Virus record (IMG/VR): IMGVR_UViG_3300029914_000006 | From: an uncultured virus (IMG/VR IMGVR_UViG_3300029914_000006) | Lineage: Duplodnaviria > Heunggongvirae > Uroviricota > Caudoviricetes | DNA: 64,000 nt | Strand: one strand, 5' to 3' | Shown: positions 2,061 through 64,000 of the stretch, one piece after another | How the letters are laid out: each line of letters starts with the position of its first letter | How positions within the stretch are numbered: position 1 is the stretch's first letter | The notes under the pieces: generated by a model | What the model was told of the DNA's origin: nothing | What the model saw: the letters and a program-made list of their open reading frames with translations, nothing else | The model's database searches: none | Made by a program: the position numbers and the translations under genes

Positions 2061-2251
2061 TGGCTCAGACGATCAATGTTCCCTCCCCGGTATCCGCAGC
2101 GGTTCCGTTCGTTCACTCGCAGGCGAGTCAGATTCCTTCCCCTCCTAGCGGGCTCACTGAGTTCGGATACAAACACCTTTCAGACACTCAGACGGCGATT
2201 GCGGCCCTTGTCGCACAGGTTGCCGCACTAAACGCAAAGGCAGGACTATGA
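2057..2251 (+). CDS. Small virion protein, hypothetical
   Basis: Translationally coupled to both neighbours; C-terminal coiled coil. Confidence 0.6.
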   Translation: MMAQTINVPSPVSAAVPFVHSQASQIPSPPSGLTEFGYKHLSDTQTAIAALVAQVAALNAKAGL

Positions 2252-4386
2252 AAAACCGTATTATCACATTTCTCGGAACGCTGGCACTATTCCTGAGCTC
2301 TGTCCCTGCTGTATCTCAGAATCCTGTGGTGCCTTTCCGGTCGCCGCGCGCCACGTTCACCACTCAGACAGGCCAGCCACTCTCGGGCGGATGCATCTAC
2401 ACCTACCAAGGCGGCACAACCACTCAGCAGGCGACCTACACCGATTACACAGGCGGCACAGCCAACACGAACCCCGTCATTCTCGATACTACCGGCAGCG
2501 CTGTGATGTGGCTTGGCGCGAACTCCTACAAGTTTGTCGCCTACAGCGCTGGTGGGTATCACTGCTCATCGGGAAGCCTCCAGTGGACGGTTGATCAGAT
2601 TCCCGGCGATGCGTTCCTGAACGGGACCATAAGCGGCGCGACAATCACCAACCCTACAATCACCGGCGGCACGGATTCAGGCACAACAATTTCCAGTGCG
2701 GTAATTACAGGATCGAGCATCAATAGTTCTGCAATCGGCTCCTCTGTGCCAGCATCAGGGTCGTTTACCAGCGTAGCCTCAGCGCTCCAGGCCGTGACCT
2801 TTAGTTCGACTCCCGTCTTTGCTGCTAGCAGTTACGGTTATTTCACTATGACGCTGAGCGGAAATGTCGCATCCAGCACAATCACCGGAGCAACTACGGG
2901 CCAGACGATAGCTTTTCAGATTTGCCAGAACGGGACCGGTCAGGTGGTTAACAGCCAAACTACCGGATTTACGTTTGCGTGGCCTTCTACGTACCCGAAT
3001 GCACCCACGATAAACTCTGCGCTGAATGCTTGCACTGTGGTGACTGCTTTCTATAATGGCTCCAACTGGGTCACGATCTCGCAGAGCCAGCAGGTGATTC
3101 TTGGCAATCTCGATACTCTAACGTTCACGTCTACGCCGATATTTCCAGCAACAAACTACTCGAATTTCCTGCTCACGCTCACAGGGAACGCGACAAGTAG
3201 CACAATTGCAGGCGGAACCATTGGACAGGTTTCCACCTTCGACATATGCGAAGACTCGACCGGGGGGCGAACCTTCGTGTGGCCTTCGAATGTCCTAAAT
3301 TCTCCCCAGTTTGTGACTAACGCGGGAGTGTGCAACTCGCTGATTACGGTTTACAACGGAACAAACTGGAACACGGTTGCAAGCTCCTCGACAAGCTCTA
3401 CTCCGCTGACCGGGAACCTGGATATCATCGGTTTCACTTCTGCCCCGTCATTTAACGCGGCGAGCTACAGCGCTTTCCAGATGACACTAGGGGGTAATGT
3501 CACTTCCAGCTCGATCATCGGCGGATCAACTGGACAGTTGATTTCCATCGCACTGATACAGGGGTCGTCTACAACTACGGCTCCAGCGAGCGCTCCGACA
3601 GTCACAACCTCTACCACTGGAGGCAGTCTCCCGGCTACGACAACCTATTACGCAAAATGCAGTTATCTGTTCGGGGTGACAGAGAGCCTGCCGAGCGCGG
3701 AGGCGTATCAGGCGACAGGCTCAGGGTCTACGAACTCAATCACTTGGACCTGCCCAGCGTATGCGGGCGTGACGCAGTACAAGTTCTATCTGGGGGCGGG
3801 GACGGGTGCAGAAGCCTATTATTATCTGACAACCAGCACTTCATTTGTGCAGCAAAATATACCCAGCAGTTACACTCCGGGCTCGCCGTACGGATCAAGC
3901 ATATACACCGTAGCGTGGCCTTCCAACCTGATAAACCCGCCACTGATGGCTACTGGTGTAGGCGCTACGACCGCTCTTACTGCCGTGTACAACGGTTCAT
4001 ATTGGGTAACGGTAGGATCAAGTGGTGCAGGTAGCAGCAATAGCGGCCCGGTGTGCGTGGGCGGTAATTGCTATCGGCAGAACCCTGATGGAAGCTATGA
4101 CGAGTGGGGATCAACTCCCACGTTTGGAGGGCAGAATGGCGGTAGCTTCAGCATGGCTTTCCCTCATGCATTCACCACGCTTTCGAGTATTCAGGTAGTT
4201 TTTAGTCCGAACGGATGCGATGGCGGCAATGCGGCTACCTGCGCCGCGAATCCAAGCGGCAGCCCGAACAACGTGTACACGTGTGGAATTCTTACTCCAA
4301 GCGTAAGCGCGCCTACCGGCTTCTATTCGTCCTCGAATACGGTAACCGCCGGAGCGTCATGTTCCTGGATGGCGAAGGGGTATTGA
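2248..4386 (+). CDS. Tail fibre-like protein with N-terminal signal peptide
   Basis: Virion-attachment-type segment GQPLSGGCIYTYQGGTTT..NTNPVILD, three internal beta repeats (TF.STP.F.A..Y..F..TL.GN..SSTI.G), and a C-terminal fibre-tip-like YRQNPDG..DEWG..FPHAF. Confidence 0.75.
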   Translation: MKNRIITFLGTLALFLSSVPAVSQNPVVPFRSPRATFTTQTGQPLSGGCIYTYQGGTTTQQATYTDYTGGTANTNPVILDTTGSAVMWLGANSYKFVAYSAGGYHCSSGSLQWTVDQIPGDAFLNGTISGATITNPTITGGTDSGTTISSAVITGSSINSSAIGSSVPASGSFTSVASALQAVTFSSTPVFAASSYGYFTMTLSGNVASSTITGATTGQTIAFQICQNGTGQVVNSQTTGFTFAWPSTYPNAPTINSALNACTVVTAFYNGSNWVTISQSQQVILGNLDTLTFTSTPIFPATNYSNFLLTLTGNATSSTIAGGTIGQVSTFDICEDSTGGRTFVWPSNVLNSPQFVTNAGVCNSLITVYNGTNWNTVASSSTSSTPLTGNLDIIGFTSAPSFNAASYSAFQMTLGGNVTSSSIIGGSTGQLISIALIQGSSTTTAPASAPTVTTSTTGGSLPATTTYYAKCSYLFGVTESLPSAEAYQATGSGSTNSITWTCPAYAGVTQYKFYLGAGTGAEAYYYLTTSTSFVQQNIPSSYTPGSPYGSSIYTVAWPSNLINPPLMATGVGATTALTAVYNGSYWVTVGSSGAGSSNSGPVCVGGNCYRQNPDGSYDEWGSTPTFGGQNGGSFSMAFPHAFTTLSSIQVVFSPNGCDGGNAATCAANPSGSPNNVYTCGILTPSVSAPTGFYSSSNTVTAGASCSWMAKGY

Positions 4387-9566: not shown

Positions 9567-9610
9567 CGGCGAGGTAAGCAAAGGCTAATCCAATGACAAG
9601 ACTCTCAAGC

Positions 9611-11644
9611 ATGACGAAATTATACGCCACTATCGCTTTCGCATTCATGGCGGTTCTTGCTTCCGCGCAGACGAACCGTTTCCCGCCGATCAACCTCTAC
9701 ACCGGTGATCCGACAGGTGTAGCCTGCACTATCCCGAATAGTTTAGTGCAAAGCACTACAACTGAGGGGATTTACGGCTGTACCATCGGGGGAGTTTATG
9801 CTCCTCTCCCTCCAGATGCCACCAAACTCCCGCTCACCGGAGGAACGATCAACGGGAACCTCAACGTCACAGGCAATGCTACCCTTCCAAACATCGTAGG
9901 CCCAACAACGCTCACCGGCCTGCTGAACGGAACAGATGCAACTTTCTCAGACACCGTCGCGGCTACAACTGAGACTTCATGCGTCAACAATAGGACCCTG
10001 AACCCTACTTGCCCTACTTATGGAGCTGACCCGACAGGAGTAGCTGACTCCACTTCTGCCATAAATACCGCATGCTCCGTGGCATATTATGGGAATTTAC
10101 AAGTCAAACTTCCAGCGGGAATCTACAAAGTCTCTGGACAACTCACGAACTGCGGATCTCTGCCTATAGGTTTTTTTGGGAGTGGCGTAGCGAACACAAT
10201 TATCAAAAACTACAGCACCACGGCCTATATTTTCCCAGTCACCTATAGTATTTTAGGCGGCGGGACCACAACCACAACTGCCGCGCAATTTAAGGATTTT
10301 CAGATTGTTCAAGCGCCCGGTGTGACGCCCACTGCGGGTGGTGCGTTCCTAATCGGATCTGGTGTTACTGGCTATTACACAGTTGGGTTACGAATCGAAG
10401 ATGTAACAATCAACAACATGTGGGGTGGCCTTTATTTTCAGCAGGGACAGATTTCCAACTGGGTCAATAATGTATATGTAGTTTGGTCAACCAGCGGGGG
10501 GAATGGCTGCATTTATTACAATAGTGCCGTTCCAAGTGGGGATGATCATATCAACGATGTAGAGTGCAACGGGGCAAATACAGGAGTAACCATCGCCCAG
10601 TCTGACACGACAGAATACTCTAACCTGAAAACCAATGGATCGGGGGTCGTGTTCACAGGTAGCGCAATGACAGCCAATGTTCGATTTATTGATCCTTCGA
10701 TTGAGAATGCTCCCGCCTGCGGGTTCGATTTTGGTGTTGGTACACCACCTACTGAAACACAGATATTTGGCGGAGGCGTTGGAAATACAATTCACGCCCT
10801 TTGCAACGAATCAAATGCGACTAACCTTATGTATTACTTCAACAATTACAACAATAGCGGAGATGGATCTACTAGCGGCGGAAGTCAGGTGGCGGGAAAG
10901 ATTTTCACTTCTGAAACTTTCAATACCCACTCTACTGTGGATTGCTCAACAGCAGTTCCCTTTGTGTGTGGAGCAAACAACGCTGAGAGTTATACGCAGC
11001 TTTATGGCTACTCTAATGAAAGCCCCTCCGCTTTGACTTTCGGTCCAGTATCTGGCGCTATTGCTAACCAAAGTCAGGGATGGATAGGAATCGAACCTGA
11101 CGGAGCGTATTCGGGACGATTGGCATGGTTTGTACCGAAGGTAGGTAATGGAACACATACCGCGAGTGATGCAATTAGGGCATGCACTGTTTTAGGGGAA
11201 CCCTCAAACAGTCAGGTATACATGCGATGCAATGGAGGAATGTTCATTGGTCCTGATGCGTCGAGCGCCGATCCGGGTGTAAATAATCTTTCCGTATATG
11301 GGAACATCACAACTCAAGGAAGTTACGGAAACATGAACGGGCTGATTATTCCCTCTACGGTCAAAGGTAGCACAGGTACAGCTACGGGATACATCGAGAT
11401 CGCGCAATTGTGCACGACTGGGAGTATCACACCATCTGGAAGCGCAGGAGGTACGGCATCTGGAACGTGCACTCTGGCAACTTCGGCCACGGGCCAAACG
11501 GGTATCGCAGCGGCAAACGATGGAACCGTACAGGCTGGGTTGATATCGCAAGTGTCCGTCAATGGGACAACGGCGACTGTGACGATCACTACAGTGATAG
11601 CGGGATCGCCTTTAGCTAAAGCCTACAACGTCAAAGTATTTTAA
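9611..11644 (+). CDS. Tailspike / beta-helix depolymerase-like protein with signal peptide (alternative start 9593)
   Basis: KLPLTGGTINGNL fibre motif and YGADPTGVADSTSAINTA..VKLPAGIYKV pectate-lyase-3-type start, followed by Asn/Gly/Thr-rich beta repeats. Confidence 0.8.
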   Translation: MTKLYATIAFAFMAVLASAQTNRFPPINLYTGDPTGVACTIPNSLVQSTTTEGIYGCTIGGVYAPLPPDATKLPLTGGTINGNLNVTGNATLPNIVGPTTLTGLLNGTDATFSDTVAATTETSCVNNRTLNPTCPTYGADPTGVADSTSAINTACSVAYYGNLQVKLPAGIYKVSGQLTNCGSLPIGFFGSGVANTIIKNYSTTAYIFPVTYSILGGGTTTTTAAQFKDFQIVQAPGVTPTAGGAFLIGSGVTGYYTVGLRIEDVTINNMWGGLYFQQGQISNWVNNVYVVWSTSGGNGCIYYNSAVPSGDDHINDVECNGANTGVTIAQSDTTEYSNLKTNGSGVVFTGSAMTANVRFIDPSIENAPACGFDFGVGTPPTETQIFGGGVGNTIHALCNESNATNLMYYFNNYNNSGDGSTSGGSQVAGKIFTSETFNTHSTVDCSTAVPFVCGANNAESYTQLYGYSNESPSALTFGPVSGAIANQSQGWIGIEPDGAYSGRLAWFVPKVGNGTHTASDAIRACTVLGEPSNSQVYMRCNGGMFIGPDASSADPGVNNLSVYGNITTQGSYGNMNGLIIPSTVKGSTGTATGYIEIAQLCTTGSITPSGSAGGTASGTCTLATSATGQTGIAAANDGTVQAGLISQVSVNGTTATVTITTVIAGSPLAKAYNVKVF

Positions 11645-17366: not shown

Positions 17367-17876
17367 TTAACGCCTCCAAGCAAAATCACCATGAATTTGT
17401 TTCGCTACCAAGCAATACTTTTCGTAGGCTAATTCCGGAGTATCAAATAAACCAAGATAGCTACGCTTTCCTTTTACTTCTATGCAAGCGCGCCACTTCT
17501 TGTCGCGCTTATACCACGAGACTCCCTTGAATCCACTTTTATTATTTCTCTGTGGGCCCCGGTTACATTGATTCTGCGATGAAGTTGCAATTCTTAGGTT
17601 TTCATCCCGGTTATCTAAAGTGGCTTGATTTTTATGCTCTCCTTGGCGCTTGTCTCCGAACTTAAGTCCTAGAATTTCACGATGCATTCCAATCACCACG
17701 CGTCTACCGTTTTCGAGTTTAATCTTTCGGAAGGCATAAAATGTTCGCGTGTGGGAAATCCAGCATGCCCACCACTTATATGCATTCAACTCATCAAATC
17801 GATGCGCAGAAACAAGCGCAACTTGTCCCTGAGTGAGCGGAATTTCGCGGTACAATGGCGTAGATGGGGTTGTCAT
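17367..17876 (-). CDS. HNH-AP2 homing endonuclease
   Basis: IPLTQG, MHREI..EHKNQATLDNRDENLR, SGFKGVSW..KWRA..YLGLF..HGDFA. Confidence 0.9.
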   Translation of the reverse strand: MTTPSTPLYREIPLTQGQVALVSAHRFDELNAYKWWACWISHTRTFYAFRKIKLENGRRVVIGMHREILGLKFGDKRQGEHKNQATLDNRDENLRIATSSQNQCNRGPQRNNKSGFKGVSWYKRDKKWRACIEVKGKRSYLGLFDTPELAYEKYCLVAKQIHGDFAWRR

Positions 17877-17932
17877 GATTCGCCCTCCCAGGCGATAAGG
17901 CTTGCCGGTGCTGATAACACCTGACAGCCCCA

Positions 17933-18166
17933 TTATACAACGATTTCTACATTAAATGCACGCGATTGTTTGTCCTCTTGGGGCACGCGCCCAATCAGCC
18001 CCTTGACGCGTGCGCCGATCTCTGGCACAGTGCGCTCCTTGGCGTAGTTTTTGTGGCAGAAAAGCGTTTCCCCCGCGTCTGTGCGCACCCAGAAAATATC
18101 CTTGTGCGTGACTGTGTTCTCTACCACTCCGGTAAATCTCTCTGCGTTGGTCACTTTCAAGCTCAT
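17933..18166 (-). CDS. Cold-shock/OB-fold-like small protein
   Basis: FTGVV..FWVRTDAGETLFCH..GARV..RAFNV resembles a CSD fold. Confidence 0.5.
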   Translation of the reverse strand: MSLKVTNAERFTGVVENTVTHKDIFWVRTDAGETLFCHKNYAKERTVPEIGARVKGLIGRVPQEDKQSRAFNVEIVV

Positions 18167-24225: not shown

Positions 24226-24639
24226 TTATTTTGAATAGTTTCGTAGTGCGCGCTCTAGGTTCCCATACTTATCGATCCTTTGGTAAAGCCTTTGCCTGGA
24301 TATTCCAACCAGCGCAGCAATCTCCGAAGCGTTCAAATAATGCACGCTAGGTATCCTCTGATTTTCCCTTTGTTGCTTAGCTGTCGCCCATCGGCAGTTC
24401 GCCGGTTTGTAATCCCCATCGTTGTCGATGCGGTCTATGTTGTGCTTCTTGCTTGGCGCAGGCCCCATGTCGGAGAAGAAGTTTTCAAAGGAAAGCCATC
24501 TCTCGCACACTTTAATGCCTCTTCCCCCGTAGTACTTATAAGCAGTCACTTTAGGGTTACGACATCTGTTTTTCATAGAGGTCCAAACACCATAGATCAG
24601 AGTCTTTCTCATTCCGTGCGTTATGTTTCGCGGTTTCAT
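24226..24639 (-). CDS. HNH homing endonuclease-like protein
   Basis: [42 protein letters not shown]. Confidence 0.88.
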
Positions 24640-24739: not shown

Positions 24740-25189
24740 ATGTTGCATCCCAGCCAAAATTGCCTCGACCTGATCAAGCGCAGCGAAGGCCTGCGCCTGA
24801 CGCCGTACCTCGATCTTGCAGGGTACTGGACGGTTGGGTATGGGCACAAGCTCACAAGCGCAGAGCTGGCCGGAGATGCCAAGACGCGCAATATCACCGC
24901 GTCGGATGCTCTTTTACTGCTGATCGACGATGCGGACTGGGCCGCCGAGCAGGTAGCGCGGATAGTGCATGTGCCGCTCGCTCAAGGCCATCTCGACGCG
25001 CTCACGGACTTTGTTTTCAACCTCGGCGCTGGCCGCCTGGCAGGATCGACGCTGCTCAAACTGCTCAACGCTGGAGACTACGCCGCAGCCGGCCAGGGGC
25101 TGCTCAAGTGGGACATGGCCGCAGGCGTGCACCAGCCGGGACTAACTGCTCGGCGCAAAGCTGAGCTTGCGATGTGGGAGACAGCATGA
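24740..25189 (+). CDS. Endolysin, GH24 lysozyme
   Basis: SEGLRLTPYLDLAGYWTVGYGH (E-x8-D-x5-T), FVFNLG, GLTARRKAE. Confidence 0.93.
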   Translation: MLHPSQNCLDLIKRSEGLRLTPYLDLAGYWTVGYGHKLTSAELAGDAKTRNITASDALLLLIDDADWAAEQVARIVHVPLAQGHLDALTDFVFNLGAGRLAGSTLLKLLNAGDYAAAGQGLLKWDMAAGVHQPGLTARRKAELAMWETA

Positions 25190-28779: not shown

Positions 28780-29394
28780 CTAGCGGACAGCCCGAGTAAG
28801 AGATTGCTCGATGCTCCATCCGAGTTTTCCCAATCGCTGATAGATCACGTCAGCGTTTATCCCGGTTCGAGCAGCCCATTGCACAAGGTTGAGGGTCTCT
28901 CCTCTCCATGTTATTCGTCGATTGTTTCTTTTGTTGTTTGCTTGTTCGATGGGCGTAGACCACTTGCAATTTGTAGGTTCATAGTGGCCGTCATTGTTAA
29001 CTCGGTTAATCGAGTGATTACGAGATGGCCTTATCCCCATATCGCTAAGAAATGCCGGGAAACTGCTCCATTCCTCACACACTCGTATTCCCCTTCCGCC
29101 ATAGTCTGCATAGTCTCCCGACAAAGGATTGAAGCACCGATCTCGAATTCGACGCCATGTTCTATATTCGACCGATTTCGACATTCCGTGAATAGTTGCT
29201 CGGTCTCGGCTCAATTCTCGGCGAACGCATCCGCAGGATGTCGATGTTCCTCTTCGCAGGGCCTTGGTGTATACTTCAGCCAGTTTTCCGCATCGGCACA
29301 TGCAGAGCCACTTCGTTTCATGCTTGACTGGATCGGCCTGAGAAACCACCGTCCAGAATCCAAATTTTTGGCCGGTAATATCGGTTATTTTCAT
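28780..29394 (-). CDS. HNH homing endonuclease-like protein
   Basis: DITGQKFG..WLCMCRCG..SCGC, YGGRGIRVCEEW, NRVNNDGHYEPTNCKW. Confidence 0.88.
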   Translation of the reverse strand: MKITDITGQKFGFWTVVSQADPVKHETKWLCMCRCGKLAEVYTKALRRGTSTSCGCVRRELSRDRATIHGMSKSVEYRTWRRIRDRCFNPLSGDYADYGGRGIRVCEEWSSFPAFLSDMGIRPSRNHSINRVNNDGHYEPTNCKWSTPIEQANNKRNNRRITWRGETLNLVQWAARTGINADVIYQRLGKLGWSIEQSLTRAVR

Positions 29395-35192: not shown

Positions 35193-35230
35193 CGGTTTAC
35201 CTCCATTCCTTGCTGGTGTATCATGTCAAT

Positions 35231-35857
35231 ATGAACATGACACCAGCGGGGAATCGAGTGGAATTCTTTGGCGGACTTTGTTCCATCAAGGGTTGTGACC
35301 TTCCGGAATTGGCGGCGGGTTTCTGCAACAAGCACTGGCGGCGTTTACGGAAGTATGGTTCTCCGCTATGGCTGGCAAATCCATCAGGGTCGTATCGTGG
35401 ACTTCCGGCCGAGGTCAGATTCTTCAAGCGAGTCATTAAGACAGACGCTTGCTGGGACTGGCAGGGTGGAGTGGACGCAGACGGGTATGGAGTCTTTATG
35501 GGAGAGGTTTTAGGAACGGTATTACGAAGGGCGCACCGCTTCTCGTGGTCCTTTCACAATAACCGCACTATTGCTCCCGGCATGGAGATTCTGCATTCTT
35601 GCGATAACCCAAAATGTGTTAACCCAGACCATCTGTCTCTTGGAAACGCTGCTGAAAATCAGCGAGATAAGTGGACAAAGGGTAGAGGTTGGGTACATAA
35701 GGGAACATCTCACTGGTCCACGAAACTAAGCGAAGAACAAGTCCGTGAAATCCGCTCCAGCACGGAGACGCAGAAGCAACTAGGGATGAAATATGGTCTC
35801 AAGCAGTCCACCATCTCATGTATCGTTAGTCGTAAATCGTGGAAGCACGTAGACTGA
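35231..35857 (+). CDS. HNH endonuclease with C-terminal HTH
   Basis: CWDWQG..GYG..RAHRFSW..ILHSCDNPKCVNPDHL; TKLSEEQVREIR. Confidence 0.9.
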   Translation: MNMTPAGNRVEFFGGLCSIKGCDLPELAAGFCNKHWRRLRKYGSPLWLANPSGSYRGLPAEVRFFKRVIKTDACWDWQGGVDADGYGVFMGEVLGTVLRRAHRFSWSFHNNRTIAPGMEILHSCDNPKCVNPDHLSLGNAAENQRDKWTKGRGWVHKGTSHWSTKLSEEQVREIRSSTETQKQLGMKYGLKQSTISCIVSRKSWKHVD

Positions 35858-37850: not shown

Positions 37851-38348
37851 ATGAAAATGATCCAGATCAAGAAAAGCCCCACGGCTGATACACGCACCTG
37901 CGACTTTGCAAACACAAGCAAAGACACTTTGCTATCCAGTAGTTTCCAGCACATTGAGGACGTGCGATTCGCTCTTGAGTTCTTTATCGAGAAAATGCAG
38001 AGATCGCGGGATGCGCACGACCACGACAAGATCAGCGATATCGATGGATTCCACCGCGACTTCCTGACTGGATTCGAGGAGCACTCATGGTGGGACAATC
38101 ACCGCAAAGTGAATCGCCATCACCTACTCGAAGCAGACGGCGTGCCAGAGGACGTAAACCTGATCGACGTCTTGGATATGATTTCCGATTGCGTTATGGC
38201 GGGGATGGCTCGGTCTGGATCGGTTTATCCTCTCAACATCGACCCTGACGTTCTCATGAGGGCATTCCAGAACACGGTCGAACTTCTCAAGAAGAACGTC
38301 GAAGTTGTAGATTGGTCAGAACAGGAGAAATACATTGGCCTCATTTGA
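37851..38348 (+). CDS. HD-like (DUF5662-like) protein; probably a hybrid of the phage A 5' end and the phage B 3' end
   Basis: Contains the 127-bp repeat. Downstream of it the sequence diverges from 128-389, mostly at synonymous sites. Confidence 0.65.
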   Translation: MKMIQIKKSPTADTRTCDFANTSKDTLLSSSFQHIEDVRFALEFFIEKMQRSRDAHDHDKISDIDGFHRDFLTGFEEHSWWDNHRKVNRHHLLEADGVPEDVNLIDVLDMISDCVMAGMARSGSVYPLNIDPDVLMRAFQNTVELLKKNVEVVDWSEQEKYIGLI

Positions 38349-38826
38349 CATCGCTTTGAACTGGGTTCTCGACAGCGAGGATCCGCAGCGCCAGTACAAG
38401 CAAGTCCCCGACGCTCCTCCGGGGGCATTCGCTATCAGTGGGATAAACTCGGTAGCCTACCCGAAGCAGTTCGATTACGTCGCGTCCATCCCCCAGGCGC
38501 AGCGCGGCCTGGATGTGGCGAACTTCTACCGGGCGGAGTTCTGGAACGAGTGGTACTCGCAACTTACGGACGACGAACTCGCCAAGCGCGTTCTGGACAT
38601 GGCGGTGAACGGTGGTCCGGCGACCGCAGTCAAGTTGCTCCAGCGCGCACTGGCGATCAAGGACGATGGTCTTTGGGGACCCAACACGGTGCACGAGGCG
38701 AACTCCGAGCCGAACATCGTCGCCATGTTCACCGCGGCGCGCGTGGAGAGGTACCAGAGGATCGCGGCGGCCAACCCGGCGAACGCGCATTACCTTCCGC
38801 AGTGGCTGGCTCGGGCAAGCAGGTAG
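38335..38826 (+). CDS. GH108-family endolysin
   Basis: SE..ISGIN..FYRAEFW..LDMAVNGG..AVKLLQRAL..DDGLWGPNT..WLARA. Confidence 0.88.
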   Translation: MASFDIALNWVLDSEDPQRQYKQVPDAPPGAFAISGINSVAYPKQFDYVASIPQAQRGLDVANFYRAEFWNEWYSQLTDDELAKRVLDMAVNGGPATAVKLLQRALAIKDDGLWGPNTVHEANSEPNIVAMFTAARVERYQRIAAANPANAHYLPQWLARASR

Positions 38827-38874: not shown

Positions 38875-38951
38875 TGGTGGGCCTTGTTGGGTTTGAACCA
38901 ACGACCTTCCCGTTATGAGCGGGCTGCTCTGACCAACTGAGCTAAAGGCCC
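38875..38951 (-). tRNA. tRNA with CAT anticodon, probably Ile2 (lysidine type)
   Basis: GGGCCTTTAGCTCAGTTGGTCAGAGCAGCCCGCTCATAACGGGAAGGTCGTTGGTTCAAACCCAACAAGGCCCACCA forms a cloverleaf with encoded CCA, C4-G69 and C5-G68. Confidence 0.93.
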
Positions 38952-53321: not shown

Positions 53322-54296
53322 GTGTTGCCGTTTGTCCAGCAGATGAATTTCGGGCAGATGCAGGGATCTGTTAGTGCTTGGAACCCCAACTCTCTATCTC
53401 AGATCCCCGGCTGGATCAATCAGATTGTGCGCCAGATCTATTCCCTCAAGACCTGGTACGGACTTTTCACGAAGGGCCAAGTCGTTTGCCCACAGGCCGT
53501 CACCGGCGGCACAGCCACGGTCACTCTTGGATCGCCGACAGTACAGGGAACCGGGACAGCGTGGGACCAGACTCTCATAGGGCGTCAGTTTCGCATTGGC
53601 TTGAATTGCCCCATCTACACGATCATTGGCGTGGACCCATTCGCTCAGGTCTTGACATTGGAATTGCCGTGGAGCGGCCCTGTTCCGCCCAGCACGAACA
53701 CCCAGACCGCCGGGTACACGATTGTCGCGATGTACTACAACATTGGACCGAACATCAAGTACATCAAGACGATGGTCAACATGCAGATGGTCTACAAGCT
53801 AAAGCTCAATCTCACACAAGACTGGCTCAACAATAAGGACCCGTGGCGCATCTGGACTAACTTCCCGGTGGGCATTGCGCCGCTTCCAGCAGATCCAAAC
53901 GGAAACTACCTGATAGAAATGTGGCCCGCCCCGTGGACCCAACAGGCGATGCCATTCATGGCGTACTGCCAGCCCGCGAATCTCGTTTTGGATAACGACA
54001 GCCTGCCGCCCTATATCCGCTGCGACGTGGTGATCAAGGAGGCGATGGCGTGGGCTCTGCGGTACAAGCCGAAGGATAATCCTGGCTACGACCCGCAGAC
54101 GGCGCTCTCGCTGGCGAACACGTTTCATCAGGAATACGTTGGTCTGTTGACCGAGATGGCCAACGAGGACGAGAACTTGTACCGGACGAGCGCGACTATC
54201 CACGGAGAAGACTACCCTGAAGGCGGCGTAGGCGGAGCTTTTTCTGACGCCGTTCATGCTGTAATGTCTGGTGATTCTTGGGGAGATGGGTGGTAA
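53322..54296 (+). CDS. Head-tail adaptor-like protein (start may be further upstream)
   Basis: GTATVTLGSPTVQGTGTAW, EMWPAP, LPPYI motifs. Confidence 0.6.
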   Translation: MLPFVQQMNFGQMQGSVSAWNPNSLSQIPGWINQIVRQIYSLKTWYGLFTKGQVVCPQAVTGGTATVTLGSPTVQGTGTAWDQTLIGRQFRIGLNCPIYTIIGVDPFAQVLTLELPWSGPVPPSTNTQTAGYTIVAMYYNIGPNIKYIKTMVNMQMVYKLKLNLTQDWLNNKDPWRIWTNFPVGIAPLPADPNGNYLIEMWPAPWTQQAMPFMAYCQPANLVLDNDSLPPYIRCDVVIKEAMAWALRYKPKDNPGYDPQTALSLANTFHQEYVGLLTEMANEDENLYRTSATIHGEDYPEGGVGGAFSDAVHAVMSGDSWGDGW

Positions 54297-55804: not shown

Positions 55805-56497
55805 ATGCCGACGCCAATCTCCACCCTCGCGAATGTGGTCCAGCAGAGACTCGAAGAAGTACCGGGTAGCGCGGGGGCGTGGTGGAGTAGGCAATTCGAG
55901 GTGTATACGGCCTTGGTCGAGGCTCAGAACGACCTCCTCCTGCTTGTCGGACGCCCAACGCAGATCGTCAACATCCCCCTTACGCTGACGGCCAACACGG
56001 TATGGCAGGCGGTCCCGAAGGGCTACTTCGCGATCACGGATATTCAGGGCTCGGGAAGCCCTTTATACAAGGTGAACTTGTGGGATCTGGATTACCTATG
56101 CACGAGCTGGGGTCCGAACTGGACGCAGGACGTGGATGTGGTGGCGCAACGGTGGGCGCCGATAGGTATGAATCTTTTTGTCGTCCATCCGGCGCCGGCC
56201 TACCCGCAGACGGTCAACGTGACGGCGATCCAGTATCCGGCGACTGACGTGTGGCCGTATACGGGAGCAGAGACGGTTGTTTTCTCTGATGAGTTTTTTG
56301 TGGCGCTAGAACTGTACGCTGCCCATTATGCGACGATCAAGGAATTAGGTGGCGAGTTTCAGAACGGGCTGAAATTGCTCGACCAATATATGCAGATTGC
56401 AAAGCGGATGTCGTCCATCCAAGACCTTCGTGACCCTCTAATCTTCACGTCGGGATATGGATCAAGTCAGCGAGTTTCGCCAACTACTATGCGCTGA
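55805..56497 (+). CDS. Head-tail / tubular protein-like
   Basis: VQQRLEE..WW..ALVEAQND, VHPAP, ALELYAAH pattern. Confidence 0.6.
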   Translation: MPTPISTLANVVQQRLEEVPGSAGAWWSRQFEVYTALVEAQNDLLLLVGRPTQIVNIPLTLTANTVWQAVPKGYFAITDIQGSGSPLYKVNLWDLDYLCTSWGPNWTQDVDVVAQRWAPIGMNLFVVHPAPAYPQTVNVTAIQYPATDVWPYTGAETVVFSDEFFVALELYAAHYATIKELGGEFQNGLKLLDQYMQIAKRMSSIQDLRDPLIFTSGYGSSQRVSPTTMR

Positions 56498-57458
56498 ATA
56501 CCTCCGGAAAATTCAGGATTGCTTTACCGCCATAAATGCGGAGCGCCTCTCTATCTCGCGTTAAAGCCGCATCAATAGGATTCACAAAACGTCCTAGTTG
56601 CTTAGTTTTTCCGTTCTCCGTGACTGTGGCAAAATATATATTCCTGCTTTTATCTAACGACACCCCGCGATAACCAGACTTATTTGTGGACAGCATCCGC
56701 TTTTGTTTGTGGCGAGAACTGTCAATCCATGAAGTGTCGGTTTCGTCTGGAAAATTAGGTCGGGCGAATTCCCCGAAGTATTTACGCGCGGCATCGTCGT
56801 AAGCGAGAGCAGCGCCTTCAGGCGTCTTAAAGACACCAAGATACATTGGTTTCCCGTTGACGGTTATGATGGCAATGTACACCTTTCCTTCGGGGTACAA
56901 TCGCTCTGAAATCCCTTTATATCCATGCCATGCGTGGCAACGCGATTTAGCATTTTGCGTATTTTCCCGTGCCGATGCTGGCCTCAAATTTCTGCGCCTA
57001 TTATCAAGGCCATCGCCGTTCCTATGATCCCCCATTTTCTCGCCAGGGGAATCAACTATGAAGCGGTGCATGGCTATGCACATACGCTTTCCGTTGACTG
57101 TGACTTTGGTGACCGGGTAGATCCCCTTGCGAGTTGTCGTCGCATTGGCGCTAAACGACATCAACATGAGGCGGTCGTATTCGCAGGCATCTACGGTTGC
57201 GTAATAGCCCCTCGTGAGCGGAATCTTACGACAGATATCTCCATCGACCACGTAGGTTGATTCATCTACTGGAGGCTTGAGGCTAGCTTCCTTGCAGGCG
57301 CGGCAGCGGGTCGAGCGTTGCTCTTTTAGGCCTCCGCAGTCCGGGCAAGTGGAGTAAGATGCGGCGCGCCCATCGTAAGCAAAATTCTGTTTGACGGGAG
57401 GGGTATACGATGTAAAATCGATGGGTGGCTGGGCCACCTGCTCAAGCAGGTCTGACAT
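56487..57458 (-). CDS. HNH endonuclease with two AP2 domains
   Basis: IPLTRG, MHRFI..DHRNGDGLDNRRRNLR, two (GY.G..LG.F..AAL..D..F/Y.NFP) units. Confidence 0.92.
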   Translation of the reverse strand: MSDLLEQVAQPPIDFTSYTPPVKQNFAYDGRAASYSTCPDCGGLKEQRSTRCRACKEASLKPPVDESTYVVDGDICRKIPLTRGYYATVDACEYDRLMLMSFSANATTTRKGIYPVTKVTVNGKRMCIAMHRFIVDSPGEKMGDHRNGDGLDNRRRNLRPASARENTQNAKSRCHAWHGYKGISERLYPEGKVYIAIITVNGKPMYLGVFKTPEGAALAYDDAARKYFGEFARPNFPDETDTSWIDSSRHKQKRMLSTNKSGYRGVSLDKSRNIYFATVTENGKTKQLGRFVNPIDAALTRDREALRIYGGKAILNFPEVFSA

Positions 57459-57530: not shown

Positions 57531-57827
57531 ATGGCGAGTATTCAGCAGTTCCACGGCGAGACGAAGAAGTGCCATTGCGGCATCGCAGACAACCCGATCA
57601 TCGGCAGCGACAAGGGGTGCGTTCATTGCAAGAACAGGGGCTTCCTTGCATCCTGTAAGGCGTGTGATGGAACGGGATCATTTGTGGCGCAGATGGCCGG
57701 CGGCCCAGGATCTATGTCGTCAACATGTATTCCATGCGGAGGCACAGGTACCTACGGCGTGAATCGCCCGGCGGACTGGGCTGATGAGCCAGTCTCGAAT
57801 GAGACTCCCGAAGCAGTAACGGCCTAA
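57531..57827 (+). CDS. DnaJ-type zinc-finger small protein
   Basis: CKACDGTG and CIPCGGTG. Confidence 0.75.
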   Translation: MASIQQFHGETKKCHCGIADNPIIGSDKGCVHCKNRGFLASCKACDGTGSFVAQMAGGPGSMSSTCIPCGGTGTYGVNRPADWADEPVSNETPEAVTA

Positions 57828-57839
57828 TTGGAGGCACCA

Positions 57840-60674
57840 GTGAAGCGGATCGTCTTGTTCGTCGCTATTGCGCTGTCATCCCTTGGGGCGGCAGCGCAGA
57901 CATGTACGCCGGGGTACGGAGTCACTTGCACTCCTAACCTGAATATGATGCTTCCGCCTTACAACTACCTCAACTGGAACGTGCCGATGAATATGAATTT
58001 CACTATTCTCGACACGTTCTCGGCTACTTTGCCGAAGCTGAACATGATGAATACGTGGACGGCTACGCAGACGTTCCCGAACTTGGTTATCAGTTCCCTG
58101 GCCCCAGGGACGGGATCGATCTGTCCGAATGGTCCTGGTGGGTCACTGACGCAACTAGGGTGCTCTGGAGGCGGCGGTGGAGGGGGTACGACGACCTTTC
58201 CTCTGACGATCAACAACAGCGGATCTGGTGCGGCCAGCGGATCCACGTTCAACGGCGGTGTCGGCGTGACGATCAGCTACAACTCCATCGGGGCATCTCC
58301 GGTATGGACGCTTACCACGACCGGGACGAGCGGAGCCGCGACCTACTCGGGCGGGGTATTGAACATCCCACAGTACGCTTTCACGCAGGTCTATCCTCCT
58401 GCCGGTGTTGCGGTGTCCAATGGTTCGGCGTGGCAGACTGCCTATTTTAATACTCCATCGGCGAACCTCATGAATTCCGCCGTTGGAGCAACTACGGCAC
58501 TTACGTATTCTGGGGGCCAAGACTCCGCTGCGGGTTCTAGCAATCTCGGCGGGGTTGTCGTGCGCGGGGCGAACAACACAGGATCGACAGGATCAGGAGA
58601 TGCTGGTGGAGCGTATATCCGAGGCGGTGACAATAGTTCGACGACAACTACATCACAGTCTGGAAGCGTAGAGATTGAACCTGGATTCAGCACGGCGGGT
58701 GGCCAGCAAGGAGTTTTGATCTTTGGCCAAGCATTCACCGAGGGAACGGGTTCCTTCATGCAGTGGGGCTTAGTCTGTGCATCTTTGACGCTTCCCCAAG
58801 TGGCCGATCAATGCTCTGCGAGTCCGTCCAACTTTCTTGGAGTGGAGGACTTTCACTCTGGATCATTCGTACAAGTTCATACGCCTCCTTCAATGAGTCC
58901 TATTCAAGCAAGTGCGGCAGTCACCTTGGGGCATACCGTTTGCGCAGGAACAACGCAGAGCATGGTAACGGATAGTGGAGGACAGGGAGCTTGCACCACT
59001 GGAATTACGGTCGGGCAGGTGATTGCAGTATCCGGTCAATTGACCTTAGCAGATGGATCAAGTGCTGCACTAAGTACCACTCTCCCACTCGTGCAGATGT
59101 GGACTACCGGATCGACTGGAATTGGAGATTTGACGGCAGGAAACTCTATTGGAACATCGGGAATCAAAGTTCCATTGCTCTCGACACAAAACACTTGGAC
59201 AACCCACCAATTCAGCGGAGGGATGTGGCAAGCGAACGGAGTAGGCCCGGCTCTCGACGCAACGGATGGAACCAAGATCCTGTACACGACCGGAGCGGGT
59301 TGGGTTGCCGTAGGAGCATCGGACACGCTTCATTTTGGAAGTGGGAACCTGACGGCAGGAGGGTTGCCCTCGGTAGACTTTGGAGGGTTCGATGCTACGG
59401 GACACTTCTCACTGACCACAGTTGCGTCTAGCACATCGCCGATCTGCCCAAATGGAACCGGAGGGGCATTAACAACTACGGGATGCGCAACAGGTGGTAC
59501 GGCAAATGGGGTGCAAGGATCGGCCTCCACGACAAACGTACTCGTCCAAGGTGGCCAGGATGCATCCAGTTCCTCTGTCCTAGGTGGAATCACGGTGCGC
59601 GGCGCAAATAACTCTGGGACTGGCGGCGGAGGTAATGCAGGTATTGGGCCGGGGTCTGGCCCTACGCCCGGATTGTTTGAAGAGTGGCAGACATTCACTT
59701 CGGGCGGATCCACTGCATGGACTCTTCAATGCTACACGAGTACCACAACCATGACGGTTGCGGATTGCACTTCGGCCATCCCTTACAATTTCGTTGGTGT
59801 AGCTACTTCGACGGCGACTAATGGAACCCCCGTAATGGTGGCCATGGGGTTTAGCATTGTACCCATCAACGCAACCGCAGCGGTAGCAGTTGGGCAGGTT
59901 GTGTGTGCGAGCGGGACAGCGGGAAAAGTTACCGGGGTTACCGCTGGGTCTGTGTGTTCAAGCGGGCTTGGCATTGGGCGTGTAGTGCAAGCTGCCTCCA
60001 CGCCGACGTATGGTTCGTACCCTGACGGTTCTTCGTTGCCGACAATCAGCACCACGCTTCCACTTGTGCTACTTCAGCCCAACTACACTGGTCCCTATTG
60101 GCAAGGTGCCGTTGGTTCGAGTGCGATACCAAAAGCGTCCACCGGAGGGGCCCTTGTGGCTTCGTCGATCACTGACTTAGGAATTGACGTAGTTACCACC
60201 GAGCCACTCTACTCAGTGAACGGTAACCAGCTCACAGGTACAAGTGCCACTTCCATTGCAACCTTGACTTACACGACAACTGGAATCGCATTTCCTCCGA
60301 CCTATGCCACAGCATCCCGGTTGTATCGTGGTCAGTGCCATGTCTCTTGGGAACAGGCTACCGGCATCGCCACAGTTAAGTTTGGCATCGGGACAAGCGT
60401 AGCGCCGACACACCTTTCTCTGACCTCGGTCAGTTACCCCGGAACAACATCCGTTCCTTTCGGAACAGGAACGACCGATACCACCACGATTACTACGACC
60501 GATGCCACTGGGTTCTTGACCCCCGCAGGGACAGCGACTGCCTACGTGACTGACATCTATGTGACCGCTAGTTTCACCGCTGCGGCGAATACGGTTACGC
60601 TTTACGGCCAGACCAGCAATACGTCTGATGCCCTACTGATCGAGCCGGGAACGTTCTGCACTTGGATTCCGTGA
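57840..60674 (+). CDS. Tail fibre-like protein with signal peptide and a duplicated Cys-paired domain
   Basis: GGAGG RBS before GTG; (M)KRIVLFVAIALSSLGAAAQ; TPNLN..LP..W..MNMNFTILD attachment-type motif; Gly/Thr/Ser-rich. Confidence 0.75.
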   Translation: MKRIVLFVAIALSSLGAAAQTCTPGYGVTCTPNLNMMLPPYNYLNWNVPMNMNFTILDTFSATLPKLNMMNTWTATQTFPNLVISSLAPGTGSICPNGPGGSLTQLGCSGGGGGGGTTTFPLTINNSGSGAASGSTFNGGVGVTISYNSIGASPVWTLTTTGTSGAATYSGGVLNIPQYAFTQVYPPAGVAVSNGSAWQTAYFNTPSANLMNSAVGATTALTYSGGQDSAAGSSNLGGVVVRGANNTGSTGSGDAGGAYIRGGDNSSTTTTSQSGSVEIEPGFSTAGGQQGVLIFGQAFTEGTGSFMQWGLVCASLTLPQVADQCSASPSNFLGVEDFHSGSFVQVHTPPSMSPIQASAAVTLGHTVCAGTTQSMVTDSGGQGACTTGITVGQVIAVSGQLTLADGSSAALSTTLPLVQMWTTGSTGIGDLTAGNSIGTSGIKVPLLSTQNTWTTHQFSGGMWQANGVGPALDATDGTKILYTTGAGWVAVGASDTLHFGSGNLTAGGLPSVDFGGFDATGHFSLTTVASSTSPICPNGTGGALTTTGCATGGTANGVQGSASTTNVLVQGGQDASSSSVLGGITVRGANNSGTGGGGNAGIGPGSGPTPGLFEEWQTFTSGGSTAWTLQCYTSTTTMTVADCTSAIPYNFVGVATSTATNGTPVMVAMGFSIVPINATAAVAVGQVVCASGTAGKVTGVTAGSVCSSGLGIGRVVQAASTPTYGSYPDGSSLPTISTTLPLVLLQPNYTGPYWQGAVGSSAIPKASTGGALVASSITDLGIDVVTTEPLYSVNGNQLTGTSATSIATLTYTTTGIAFPPTYATASRLYRGQCHVSWEQATGIATVKFGIGTSVAPTHLSLTSVSYPGTTSVPFGTGTTDTTTITTTDATGFLTPAGTATAYVTDIYVTASFTAAANTVTLYGQTSNTSDALLIEPGTFCTWIP

Positions 60675-60681
60675 GGAGAAT

Positions 60682-61839
60682 ATGGCTACAGTCGGCGTAG
60701 GATACAGAACGGCCGGAGACGTGCTTTTCGAGATATCGATGCACCTTGCCCAGCCGTGCGTCTACACGAGCCTTTCCTCTCCTGTTACTGCTGGCGCCGG
60801 TGTAACCGCCACGGTATCGAATACCTACGCGATGTATCCTGGCGCGCTGCTCATCGTGGAGTTGCCGGGCAATACCGCGCAGGAAGTAGTCACAGTTCTG
60901 ACGGTGCCAACGCCCACGACCTTCACAGCCAATTTCTCCAACAGCCACCTTGCCGCTGCGCCGGTATGGGGAGCCACTTTCCCGACTCAACAGGCGACCG
61001 ATCCTATCTTCACGCAGTCAGAGATGCTTTCGTATCTATCGAGGGCGCAGAACGAATTTCTGACGGCTGTGCCGTGCTTTTATGAACGGTTCTTCCAGGA
61101 CGTTAACCTGGGGATGATCTATCAGGCGACCCCTCCTACGGCGATTTTGATCGATCGCATCGCGGCATCCTTCCTTAATATTCCGATTACGACCATGACG
61201 CGGATGAACAACGTGGTCACGCTGACCGCGGTGGGTCCGACGGGGCTGTCGCAGTACGGAACGTTCGCAGTAGCCAACACCAGCGGCGATTTGACGGACA
61301 CGTCATTCCTCGGCGTCTTCGCGGTTTCCACTTCCAGCGTCGGTTCTGGCTTTGGCGGCGGCGGATACGGTGGAGGAGGATACGGAGGCGGGAGTTCGAT
61401 CACCTATCCCCAAGCTGGCCCAGATGCTACGGCCACAGGTGGCACTGTCCAGTCTATGTTGAGACTGTACGAGACGACGCAGCAGGAACTGGCCATGGCC
61501 AACCGGAACTGGCAGGTGAACTACGTCGGCCCGTTGCAGAGTTGGTTCGAGGACCGCGCCGGGCTGTATCGATGGGGAGTGGGCGGGCTTCCGTCGTCGA
61601 ACTTTCCTGTAGAGCTACTTTGTGCCGTGCGAGATTCTGACACGTTGGGAATGATGGACGGGTTTCTCGTGCCGGATGTTTGCCTGCATGGGGTACGCTA
61701 CCTAGCCCTTTCGTATATTTGGAGCAAGGACGGTGTGGCCTCTCAGCCGCAGATGGCAGAATTCTGCCTCAAGCGCTATGCTCAAGTTGTCATGGCGACT
61801 CAGCGGTACATCCAAGCGATGAAGATGGGGAGCAAGTAA
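60682..61839 (+). CDS. Tail/adaptor structural protein
   Basis: FTQSEMLSYLSRAQNEF and LVPDVCLHGVRYLALS adaptor-type motifs. Confidence 0.6.
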   Translation: MATVGVGYRTAGDVLFEISMHLAQPCVYTSLSSPVTAGAGVTATVSNTYAMYPGALLIVELPGNTAQEVVTVLTVPTPTTFTANFSNSHLAAAPVWGATFPTQQATDPIFTQSEMLSYLSRAQNEFLTAVPCFYERFFQDVNLGMIYQATPPTAILIDRIAASFLNIPITTMTRMNNVVTLTAVGPTGLSQYGTFAVANTSGDLTDTSFLGVFAVSTSSVGSGFGGGGYGGGGYGGGSSITYPQAGPDATATGGTVQSMLRLYETTQQELAMANRNWQVNYVGPLQSWFEDRAGLYRWGVGGLPSSNFPVELLCAVRDSDTLGMMDGFLVPDVCLHGVRYLALSYIWSKDGVASQPQMAEFCLKRYAQVVMATQRYIQAMKMGSK

Positions 61840-62406: not shown

Positions 62407-64000
62407 ATGTCACAAGACACCGACTACAAACCCGTATCGCTGGTATACAAGTCGCGCGGCCTGGTTGCAAGAAACGTGTACGATCAGTGCCCAGAATATA
62501 CCTATATTGACTATCTCAATGTCTATGAACGAGAAGAAAATAGCACCAGCAGCAGGTATGGAACGCAGGTAGTGAATCGCGATGCCATAGGTGTTGGCAC
62601 ATCTAACCACTACTTTTCGTCCCCAGTCACGTCTCTGTCCCGCATGAACTACCAGAGCAACGCATGGCGGTATGCTGGCCTCGGCGACGGATCTTTGTGG
62701 CGCCGGGCCGGGAATGCGCAGGGCGCGTACACTGAGTTGACCCTTCCGAACACATGGTACGGAACGCCTGTGACTCTTTCCGGGCAACCGTTTGGATCCT
62801 TAGTCAATAGCTGTTTTGAGACGAGCCAGCCATTTCTGTTCATGTACGATCAGAACGCCAGCATTAAGGACCAGGGAACAGGATCTCCCCAACTTACAGG
62901 CATTGACCCGTCGCCGTACACTCTCAACGTTACGCCATATGCCCCTCTACTTATCATGATCGATAGTTTCGCGTCGTCGAACACCTACACTACAGCGAAT
63001 GTTACTGGGTGGGCGTGGAGCTCGTATGAGACTTTGACTGTAGTTGCTGGAAACATGGTCACTGATTTCAGCCAGTTCTATCCCTCGGCGGCTAGCGGAT
63101 CCACTTACAATCCATCGACTACCACGAATACGGCAACATCGTCACAGGGGGTGAAGGGTACAAAGGTAGTCACATCTCCTGCGAATTCTGGATTCCCGTC
63201 AATTGTACCGCCCCCGGGAGATGTGGTAACGCTCAACGTTGCCATAAATGGATCGATATCGATTACCGGAGGATCGGCAAACGGAGAAATAGATTTTCAG
63301 TACAGCATAGACTCTGGAGTCACATGGAACTATCTATATGAATTTGACTCTTATTCGAGCGCCGTTATACCTCCGCAGAACGCCTTCGTGGTAGTTTCTG
63401 TAGCTAACATCAATACCATACAGACCAGGATAGTTTGCACATCTTACGTAGTTTCCTCGGGCAGTTCGTCTACCACAACAGGAAACATAACAAATATATT
63501 CCTAACTGTAGCTCCTCCGTTTTTTAGCGCAGTTCAGAATGGAATGATTGCAATTCTGAACTCAAACACAAGCATCAGCATCCCGATAGTAAGCTCCGTA
63601 TCGTCCAGCCTTTCAGGTGGTAGGTATACGCAACTTCTGGTGACAACTCAGTCAGCGCATGGATTGTCTTCCGGAAGTATGATTTCGATATATTCCTCAT
63701 CGAATGACCTTATAGATGGATTCTATGCGGTCATAGCAACTCCTACATCCACTACGTTCACTGTGGCGTTTTTGTCAGTGGATCAAATTGGAGCTACGGG
63801 AGGATTTGTATATGGAGGAGCGGCGGCTCCATCGGCTTGCGTTCTTAGCGATCAGTATAATCTTCCGTACCCGCAGCAAGTTTCAGCATATGGGTTCTAT
63901 CAGTATGTCCCTCCGACAACGACTTCTTTACCTGTTTCATATCGCGGGGGAACCGTCGCGGCAAGTACTACGGGGACAGTTTCCAAAACCGTGTCGATGG
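62407..64000 (+). CDS. Large tail protein, partial (runs off the window)
   Basis: Begins MSQDTDYKPVSLVYKSRGL. The frame is open in the portions I translated; Ser/Thr-rich. Confidence 0.7.
   Translation, partial: MSQDTDYKPVSLVYKSRGLVARNVYDQCPEYTYIDYLNVYEREENSTSSRYGTQVVNRDAIGVGTSNHYFSSPVTSLSRMNYQSNAWRYAGLGDGSLWRRAGNAQGAYTELTLPNTWYGTPVTLSGQPFGSLVNSCFETSQPFLFMYDQNASIKDQGTGSPQLTGIDPSPYTLNVTPYAPLLIMIDSFASSNTYTTANVTGWAWSSYETLTVVAGNMVTDFSQFYPSAASGSTYNPSTTTNTATSSQGVKGTKVVTSPANSGFPSIVPPPGDVVTLNVAINGSISITGGSANGEIDFQYSIDSGVTWNYLYEFDSYSSAVIPPQNAFVVVSVANINTIQTRIVCTSYVVSSGSSSTTTGNITNIFLTVAPPFFSAVQNGMIAILNSNTSISIPIVSSVSSSLSGGRYTQLLVTTQSAHGLSSGSMISIYSSSNDLIDGFYAVIATPTSTTFTVAFLSVDQIGATGGFVYGGAAAPSACVLSDQYNLPYPQQVSAYGFYQYVPPTTTSLPVSYRGGTVAASTTGTVSKTVSM

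Follow-up and report, generated by a model that had tools for sequence, protein, structure and literature searches.

Conventional tail fibres and tailspikes carry no leader and are folded in the cytoplasm, and the particles of tailed phages are taken to be assembled entirely in that compartment. Here we consider a gene that appears to depart from this pattern, at positions 57840-60674 on the plus strand of a window of 64,000 nucleotides (the whole stretch of DNA analysed) from an uncultured member of the Caudoviricetes, IMG/VR record IMGVR_UViG_3300029914_000006. The window joins two phages, a P22-like one (phage 1) and the carrier of this gene (phage 2). Since its product begins with an ordinary bacterial export signal, the fibre-like 57840 protein probably folds outside the cytoplasm, the site where the rest of the particle is built. 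The reading we favour, and hold to be fairly probable, is that of an optional trimeric host-recognition fibre that would be exported by Sec, folded with disulfides in the periplasm, trimerised and attached to the particle at lysis.

The closest known systems come from cultured Acidobacteriota phages of Tunturiibacter (PMC11924767). Tunturi_1 (gp12, 13, 14, 16 and 17) and Tunturi_5 (gp337 and 338) encode leader-bearing, mostly even-cysteine fibre-like proteins beside an adaptor gene. Two of them, Tunturi_1 gp13 and Tunturi_5 gp337, share the N-terminal module of the 57840 protein but lack its cysteine hairpin, and Tunturi_1 has a whole block of leader-bearing fibre genes where phage 2 has one in its tail module. 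When the phage 2 coat is compared with cultured phages, the lowest E-value belongs to the coat of Tunturi_1 (27.5% identity, E 1e-18). The accessible portion of the main text of PMC11924767 mentions neither signal peptides nor virion proteomics. Another likeness is found in the Bacteroidota siphovirus Cellulophaga phage phi10:1, where, among 16 late proteins examined, the tail-region proteins gp091-gp095 have clear leaders and gp091-094 are marked as structural by tandem mass spectrometry (according to the GenBank notes, our source on this point). These proteins differ in host phylum and tail type, have 0-2 cysteines and show no sequence similarity to the proteins compared here, but gp091-094 can serve as the best evidence that leader-bearing proteins reach tailed virions. 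Conventional trimeric fibres and tailspikes (P22 gp9, T7 gp17, gp53-like proteins and the 7eeq head-binding domain) share with the 57840 protein an N-terminal trimer module, a Gly/Thr/Ser mosaic shaft and a swappable tip, but none of the docking domains solved for them matched its module, and the predicted leader, kept in 54 of 54 proteins with this module, sets it apart from their usual leaderless, cytoplasmic state. Bdellovibrio MAT fibres (Bd2734), as the accessible part of PMC10769870 describes them, combine a signal peptide, a phage-fibre-like mosaic shaft and a disulfide-bearing TNF-like tip, and are cell-surface adhesins with their own conserved 130-residue N-terminal domain. The 57840 protein likewise seems, on modelled structure, to join a signal peptide to a trimeric fibre and a TNF-like tip, but its gene sits in a phage late operon rather than being a chromosomal cellular gene outside phage operons, and its N-terminal module, compared by description, is shorter and partly helical where the MAT domain is beta-rich. 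Phage_cement_2 (PF09956), which the protein resembles weakly, is a small stand-alone capsid cement, whereas here the resemblance concerns an internal module with four added cysteines. Signal peptides have been counted in two Bacteroides phages without assignment to fibres in the accessible part of PMC5723332, and our literature search for leader-bearing or exported phage fibres, covering few subscription papers, found no paper describing such a route.

The gene and the parts of its product are as follows, residues being numbered from the GTG start.

57830-57834, plus strand: ribosome-binding site GGAGG, 5 nucleotides ahead of the GTG (sequence)
57840-60674, plus strand: fibre-like protein of 944 residues, Gly/Thr/Ser-rich, with 16 cysteines; identical sequence on 9 contigs
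57840-57896, plus strand: Sec/signal peptidase I-type signal peptide, residues 1-19, predicted cut before Gln20 (sequence, heuristic, homologs)
57897-58106, plus strand: N-terminal module, residues 20-89, with Cys22-Cys30 hairpin, TPNLN strand, helix and fibre repeat; predicted homotrimer (sequence, homologs, model)
58119-58163, plus strand: small two-cysteine linker motif, copy 1, residues 94-108, also in other leader-bearing fibres (repeat analysis)
58197-58376, plus strand: shaft motifs, residues ~120-179, common to many leaderless phage tail-fibre proteins (sequence search)
58500-59105, plus strand: repeated module copy 1, residues 221-422, four invariant cysteines (repeat alignment)
59442-59486, plus strand: two-cysteine linker motif, copy 2, residues 535-549 (repeat analysis)
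59532-60080, plus strand: repeated module copy 2, residues 565-747, weakly Phage_cement_2-like (Pfam, Atlas)
60213-60671, plus strand: putative TNF/C1q-like beta-sandwich tip, residues 792-944, with Cys833 and Cys940 (low-confidence model; VIA-align)

The composition is rich in Thr, Gly, Ser and Ala, and the whole protein matched no family in Pfam and PHROG scans. The leader has a basic n-region, an uncharged h-region and an Ala-x-Ala site, without a lipobox, and its cleavage before Gln20 is strongly predicted from these features; our leader calls come from a signal-peptide heuristic of our own, not from SignalP. None of the 16 cysteines lies in the leader, all belonging to the mature part, and 12 fall within repeated parts. 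An earlier note on this DNA, made from its letters, had proposed an export leader ahead of a TPNLN motif, and this is borne out, the motif standing at residue 31. Within the window the heuristic also flagged the phage 1 proteins at 2248 and 9593, one low-scoring open reading frame and the product of the gene at 25186, which is of a membrane-anchored lysis type.

The leader is a conserved property of this family of proteins. A search with residues 20-184 against 1.84 billion representatives gave 388 matches, the best 150 of which are listed; the 54 proteins with the N-terminal module come from two pooled searches, with the query included and the spurious P0123 and P0142 removed before counting. 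A hydrophobic leader stands directly before the module in all 54 proteins found, 49 of them passing the strict heuristic, and a cysteine pair adjoins the cut site in 49 of the 54. The same leader test flagged 4 of 190 other open reading frames of related phages. The earlier note had staked its reading on homologs keeping the leader, and they do. With tblastn, three parts of the 57840 protein found no match in cultured phages, and scans of viral contigs with the 57840 sequence found no second locus. Two large cysteine-rich fibre-like open reading frames (L018:982-6348 and L025:8030-10891, minus strand) have a leader-like segment ~80-100 codons inside the longest frame, with no obvious ATG near it, and may in truth begin in an unusual way. 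Beside fibre or lysis genes there are small proteins of 87-124 residues with a leader (L001:7787-8050, L003:2142-2516, L025:6342-6710 on the minus strand, and 53533-53868 of the complete relative G005), which are possible periplasmic helpers.

It has to be asked how an exported fibre would meet the particle, and one answer would be that the leader stays in the inner membrane as a tether, being cut slowly or not at all, so that fibres fold at the membrane and are collected by particles before lysis. Such a tether would solve the topology problem, but the short h-regions, the Ala-x-Ala site and the near-invariant Gln at +1 across homologs indicate cleavage by signal peptidase I, and the basic n-region would turn the body of the protein to the periplasm, away from the particles. 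We regard a tether as improbable.

Under the favoured reading of an exported fibre, the N-terminal module would be the part that trimerises and docks. Three copies of residues 20-89 gave a trimer score of 0.88 against 0.01 for the best of 3 controls, with contact agreement between runs of at least 97% and a predicted local distance difference test (pLDDT) of at least 88; of 30 solved pairs 20 attain the mark for this score, as does 1 of 23 single chains, counts that are only rough for three copies and our own alignment. In the model the TPNLN strand packs on the helix of the neighbouring chain, and the cysteine hairpin lies almost wholly off the interface. Residues 20-89 are thus predicted to form the homotrimer typical of tail fibres. 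Docking is another matter: the earlier note had called TPNLN an attachment motif, a claim that found no backing, the segment matching no solved particle-docking domain. Residues 20-89 had no credible docking-domain match among PDB sequences or PHROGs, and a fold search with their weak monomer model returned nothing at Z >= 2; the Atlas lead for the module is T4_gp9_10_N (0.90, with only 125 shared features). The N-termini of the leaderless fibres P0070 and P0074 look alike by eye, and a profile comparison gave no support for their kinship to the module.

The same part of the protein bears on the idea that translation from an internal start yields the virion fibre without its leader, the leader being incidental or serving a second form, and the cysteines oxidising after lysis. 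Met36 and Met37 do lie inside the module, and spontaneous oxidation of virion cysteines is deemed possible in the accessible part of PMC13576161. However, neither methionine is conserved (the consensus there is Leu-Trp), a start at this point would cut the strand that forms the modelled trimer interface, and the leader is kept in every one of the 54 homologs. An internal start seems to us the least probable explanation of all, by a narrow margin below the tether.

Behind the module, the protein is a mosaic. The earlier note had listed four motifs as occurring twice each, and we locate them in the 944-residue protein at residues 94 and 535 (ICPNG.GG.LT..GC), 225 and 571 (GGQD..LGG..VRGANN.G), 357 and 678 (A.AAV..G..VCA), and 412 and 737 (STTLPLV). 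Its two halves align locally with a score of 266, whereas 500 shuffles reached no more than 143 and 500 local-window shuffles no more than 141, and BLASTP with composition correction gives E 1.5e-7; the DNA of the halves shows no likeness (best E 0.13). Identity between the copies is only 43% and they are not colinear, copy 1 having ~95 extra residues, and copy 1 is nearer to a single-copy homolog (52% identity) than to copy 2. The four cysteines of the repeated module are invariant in 4 of 4 copies. What stands of the large internal duplication claimed earlier is therefore the presence of two copies with kept cysteines. A recent tandem duplication was rejected for want of DNA similarity between the halves, and the low identity, the lack of colinearity and the nearer homolog of copy 1 point instead to two copies of a mobile module. 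Copy 2 matched PF09956 with E 3.4e-4 and 21.4 bits, under the cut-off of 24 (Atlas lead 0.86), and copy 1 did not match it, so that membership of the repeated module in Phage_cement_2 is not supported by sequence.

In a low-confidence model, the tip (residues 792-944) resembles the TNF-like lectin PLTL (VIA-align Z 9.4, rmsd 2.8, 120 residues aligned), followed by the furin P-domain region (Z 8.1), Bd2734 (Z 8.1) and the Sf6 needle knob (Z 7.2). For the C-terminal half, Foldseek found nothing at E <= 0.001 in the PDB, with TNF-family rows at 5e-3, and a viral library gave fibre- and collagen-type phage proteins at poor rmsd. By eye, tip and repeated module stand behind other N-termini in seven homologs, whose starts comprise five clear leaders, one likely truncated leader and one incomplete start. 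A mosaic shaft with an exchangeable tip, as in tail fibres, is thus present, the fold of the tip being a matter of prediction.

That these parts are fibre parts is indicated by the company they keep. Among the matches listed, 122 proteins share the shaft only, 45 with a leader and 77 without (some of the 77 being fragments or mis-started). Of the leaderless ones, 52 that were picked by eye as full-length were scanned, and 24 match PHROG tail families. A scan of 16 homologs of the module found a Gp53-like_C end in 3 and a K1-lyase_C end in 1, each above the Pfam cut-off, and in another homolog leader and module are combined with a tip that resembles tail fibres annotated in cultured phages (best E 5e-11). 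The median number of cysteines per 100 residues is 1.15 in shaft sharers with a leader against 0.22 in those without, and even counts (zero included) are found in 40 of 45 versus 47 of 77. By sequence, then, the leader-bearing shaft sharers are the cysteine-rich forms, one cysteine-free group excepted. This group (P0025, P0026, P0034, P0036, P0038, P0044, P0085 and P0136) has a leader, the same shaft motifs and no cysteine, and looks Bacteroidota-like by eye.

The gene lies in the tail module of phage 2, between an adaptor-like gene and a conserved tail gene, with the following neighbours.

55805-56497, plus strand: SU10-adaptor-like gene, upstream (Pfam PF24175, E 1.5e-6)
57531-57827, plus strand: small DnaJ-type zinc-finger gene, which directly precedes the 60682 orthologue in relatives (relatives compared)
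60682-61839, plus strand: conserved tail-module gene, downstream, 64-72% identical in 9 relatives

These surroundings matter for the strongest alternative, namely that the protein is exported and never reaches the particle, being a trimeric adhesin or receptor decoy derived from a phage fibre and comparable to the MAT fibres; it would act in the periplasm, at the surface or upon release at lysis, in adhesion of lysogens or in blocking competing phages. The gene is set in the late operon with gaps of 12 nucleotides before it and 7 nucleotides from its stop to the next gene, and no terminator-like site lies on the plus strand between 57827 and 60682 (promoter and terminator counts are the same as chance). 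All six other loci that bear the module belong to the tail modules of podo-like phages, and in one of them the orthologue of the 55805 adaptor gene comes immediately before it; a further locus lies behind a Baseplate_J gene of a myo-like element on a 361-kb contig of a host-order genome (20 kb read, all phage-like). Such a spread over the tail modules of unrelated phages, cultured ones included, is not what an adhesin would lead one to expect, and neither is the presence of the module in just one genome out of 401 from the host order, with phage genes around it, nor the apparent lack of a lipobox or membrane anchor. On the other side, the Bd2734-like tip (Z 8.1) recalls a surface fibre that itself bears a signal peptide, according to the accessible part of PMC10769870, and the complete relative G005 has two large cysteine-rich proteins ~48 kb from its tail module, one with a clear leader and the other with an uncertain start followed by a leader-like segment. 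The relatives of phage 2 are temperate, and the gene is accessory. Weighing these points, we consider an adhesin or decoy unlikely, though it is clearly less so than a tether or an internal start.

Several observations weigh against the favoured reading of an optional virion fibre. In nine close relatives (9 of 9; coat 88-91% identical where covered; two being near-duplicates) the slot from the adaptor to the orthologue of 60682 holds no such gene, and L045 and a relative borne on a metagenome-assembled genome (MAG) likewise lack it; L045, L048, L051 and L066-L068 were read from lists of open reading frames only, and L049 was left out. Two incomplete relatives (73-78% complete) have no large leader-bearing cysteine-rich protein. 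At third codon positions the gene has a G+C content of 0.55, below the 0.68-0.78 of most core genes (the gene at 62407 has 0.51), which fits a recent arrival. The relatives carry integrases, so that a role expressed in the lysogen is possible. No leaderless homolog of the module was found, but our searches started from the cysteine hairpin and were biased by it, so that such homologs could be missed. The N-terminal module is without a match to any solved docking domain or PHROG family, and the structure models are weak (pLDDT 55.6 and 39.3). Disulfides are not the sole reason for export, since some leader-bearing sharers have no cysteines, and the accessible part of PMC13576161 indicates that virion disulfides can form without export. 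Finally, the presence of the 57840 protein on particles is something we infer rather than observe directly. Taken by itself, the lack of the gene in close relatives makes it an optional part: it is accessory and not a fixed part of the phage 2 tail module. Three of the nine relatives have unrelated leader-bearing genes one slot upstream.

Other genes around the locus deserve mention. The zinc-finger gene at 57531-57827 is kept in the tail module of most relatives. Two SU10-adaptor-like genes (53322-54296 and 55805-56497) and a possibly related third (60682-61839) suggest stacked tail rings, and a Gly-Tyr-Gly-rich motif of the 60682 product recurs in Tunturi_1 gp30 and in L037 and L038. Between the phage 2 terminase and portal genes, 45044-45901 matches the Pfam family of Acb3, an inhibitor of cyclic-oligonucleotide-based antiphage signalling (CBASS), with E 2.9e-80, and a tRNA-Met(CAT) gene (38875-38951, minus strand) lies behind a GH108-type lysozyme gene (38335-38826). 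Homing-endonuclease-like genes of HNH or HNH-AP2 type occur at 56487-57458 (minus strand), 35210-35857, 28780-29394 (minus strand), 24226-24639 (minus strand) and 17367-17933 (minus strand), and in the relatives HNH-type genes are found at varying sites of the structural operon. Cysteine-poor proteins of 3,050-3,300 residues follow the tail genes in L016 (414-9572), L028 and L031 and are probably ejection proteins, and a small gene resembling acyl carrier protein by eye lies by the helicase gene in phage 2 relatives (L022:12109-12345).

The two phages of the window, which the earlier note had already held to differ in their capsids, are separate genomes. Positions 1-38053 correspond to a complete circular record of 38,053 bp (phage 1) with P22-like portal and coat, and a separate 88-kb record with the 57840 gene (phage 2), its portal being SU10-like, starts at window position 37927, as inferred from coordinates; our reading of phage 2 reaches ~4 kb past the window end.

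37878-38053, strand not applicable: 176-bp stretch common to both phages, assembly crossover (contigs of peat runs, depth)
2248-4386, plus strand: phage 1 leader-bearing protein, tailspike head-binding domain right behind the leader (heuristic; PDB 7eeq, E 4.3e-5)
9593-11644, plus strand: second phage 1 leader-bearing tailspike-like protein, 16 cysteines (heuristic)

Contigs of three peat runs show the 176-bp stretch as a node with different contigs on either side. Its depth comes close to that of both phages added together in two of these runs (131.7 vs 57.2 + 64.5-73.3, and 77.3 vs 38.5 + 34.4-34.8) but not in the third, and in a fourth run the phage 1 allele runs straight through; three of the peat runs used for depth may themselves be the source of the window DNA. 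The separate records and the pattern of node and depth led us to reject one hybrid genome, and findings that span 37878-38053 are artefacts of an assembly join. The stretch lies in a gene shared by both phages (37851-38348, with a weak DUF5662 match) that is diverged outside it. As the 176 bp agree in every letter, against this divergence elsewhere in the gene, a recent exchange, and with it a shared host, is suggested. The earlier observation that a signal-peptide fibre design recurs in two phages holds, as the leader-bearing proteins of phage 1 are unrelated to that of phage 2: homology was rejected at best E-values of 0.079 and 0.48. The further claim that the trait is imposed by a common host gains from the shared stretch as far as the host is concerned, but it is too narrow, since leader-bearing virion proteins are also annotated in the Bacteroidota phage phi10:1.

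The Acidobacteriota-like host that had been offered as a guess is well supported. Both genome matches of the phage 2 coat (2 of 2, at 90-92% identity) are to Acidobacteria MAG contigs; these consist of phage genes, so that a caveat of binning applies. Homologs labelled Terracidiphilus and Ca. Sulfotelmatobacter are also MAG-derived. Firmer than such labels are the cultured Tunturiibacter phages and a P22-like prophage, found on a chromosome of 4.73 Mb from the same order, whose coat is 39% identical to that of phage 1 and which has leader-bearing tail genes; prophages were among the sources of host prediction suggested in the earlier note. CRISPR spacers were another, and when 401 host-order genomes were searched at the DNA level, the matches listed included no spacer-like exact match of at least 30 bases. 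The listed holders of the 57840 sequence are all peat metagenomes, with no RNA dataset among them. Phage 2 is probably a short-tailed, temperate phage of the Terriglobales (Acidobacteriota).

How might such a fibre be made? We propose that the gene is expressed as part of the late structural operon, the order of genes being observed and co-transcription presumed, and that the protein would be exported by Sec and, as predicted, cut before Gln20. It would then fold in the periplasm, where eight cysteine pairs could be oxidised, and trimerise through the N-terminal module, as modelled, and perhaps through the tip. When the inner membrane opens at lysis, the module would bind finished particles, and the TNF-like tip, to judge from its predicted fold, would probably bind a surface glycan. 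The gene itself would be a mosaic of swappable modules that is gained and lost among close relatives. In phage 1, a leader stands ahead of a solved head-binding domain (7eeq).

The leader-bearing fibre feature is real and well conserved, and the earlier reading of it is partly supported. New from this locus are the accessory status of the gene, the modelled trimer of its N-terminal module and the direct sharing of sequence between two phages. More broadly, it seems a little likelier than even odds would have it that tailed phages of Acidobacteriota (and some of Bacteroidota, without disulfides) are built in two compartments, with cytoplasmic heads and tail cores and periplasmic fibres joined at lysis, and with shared leader-bearing, disulfide-bonded modules swapped among podo- and myo-like phages that have one host group in common, the 57840 protein being an add-on fibre. 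Leader-bearing phage genes are then not necessarily morons. Exported fibres, if true, would add a periplasmic step to particle assembly, would explain how disulfide-rich fibres fold and would make the Sec and Dsb systems of the host part of phage assembly.

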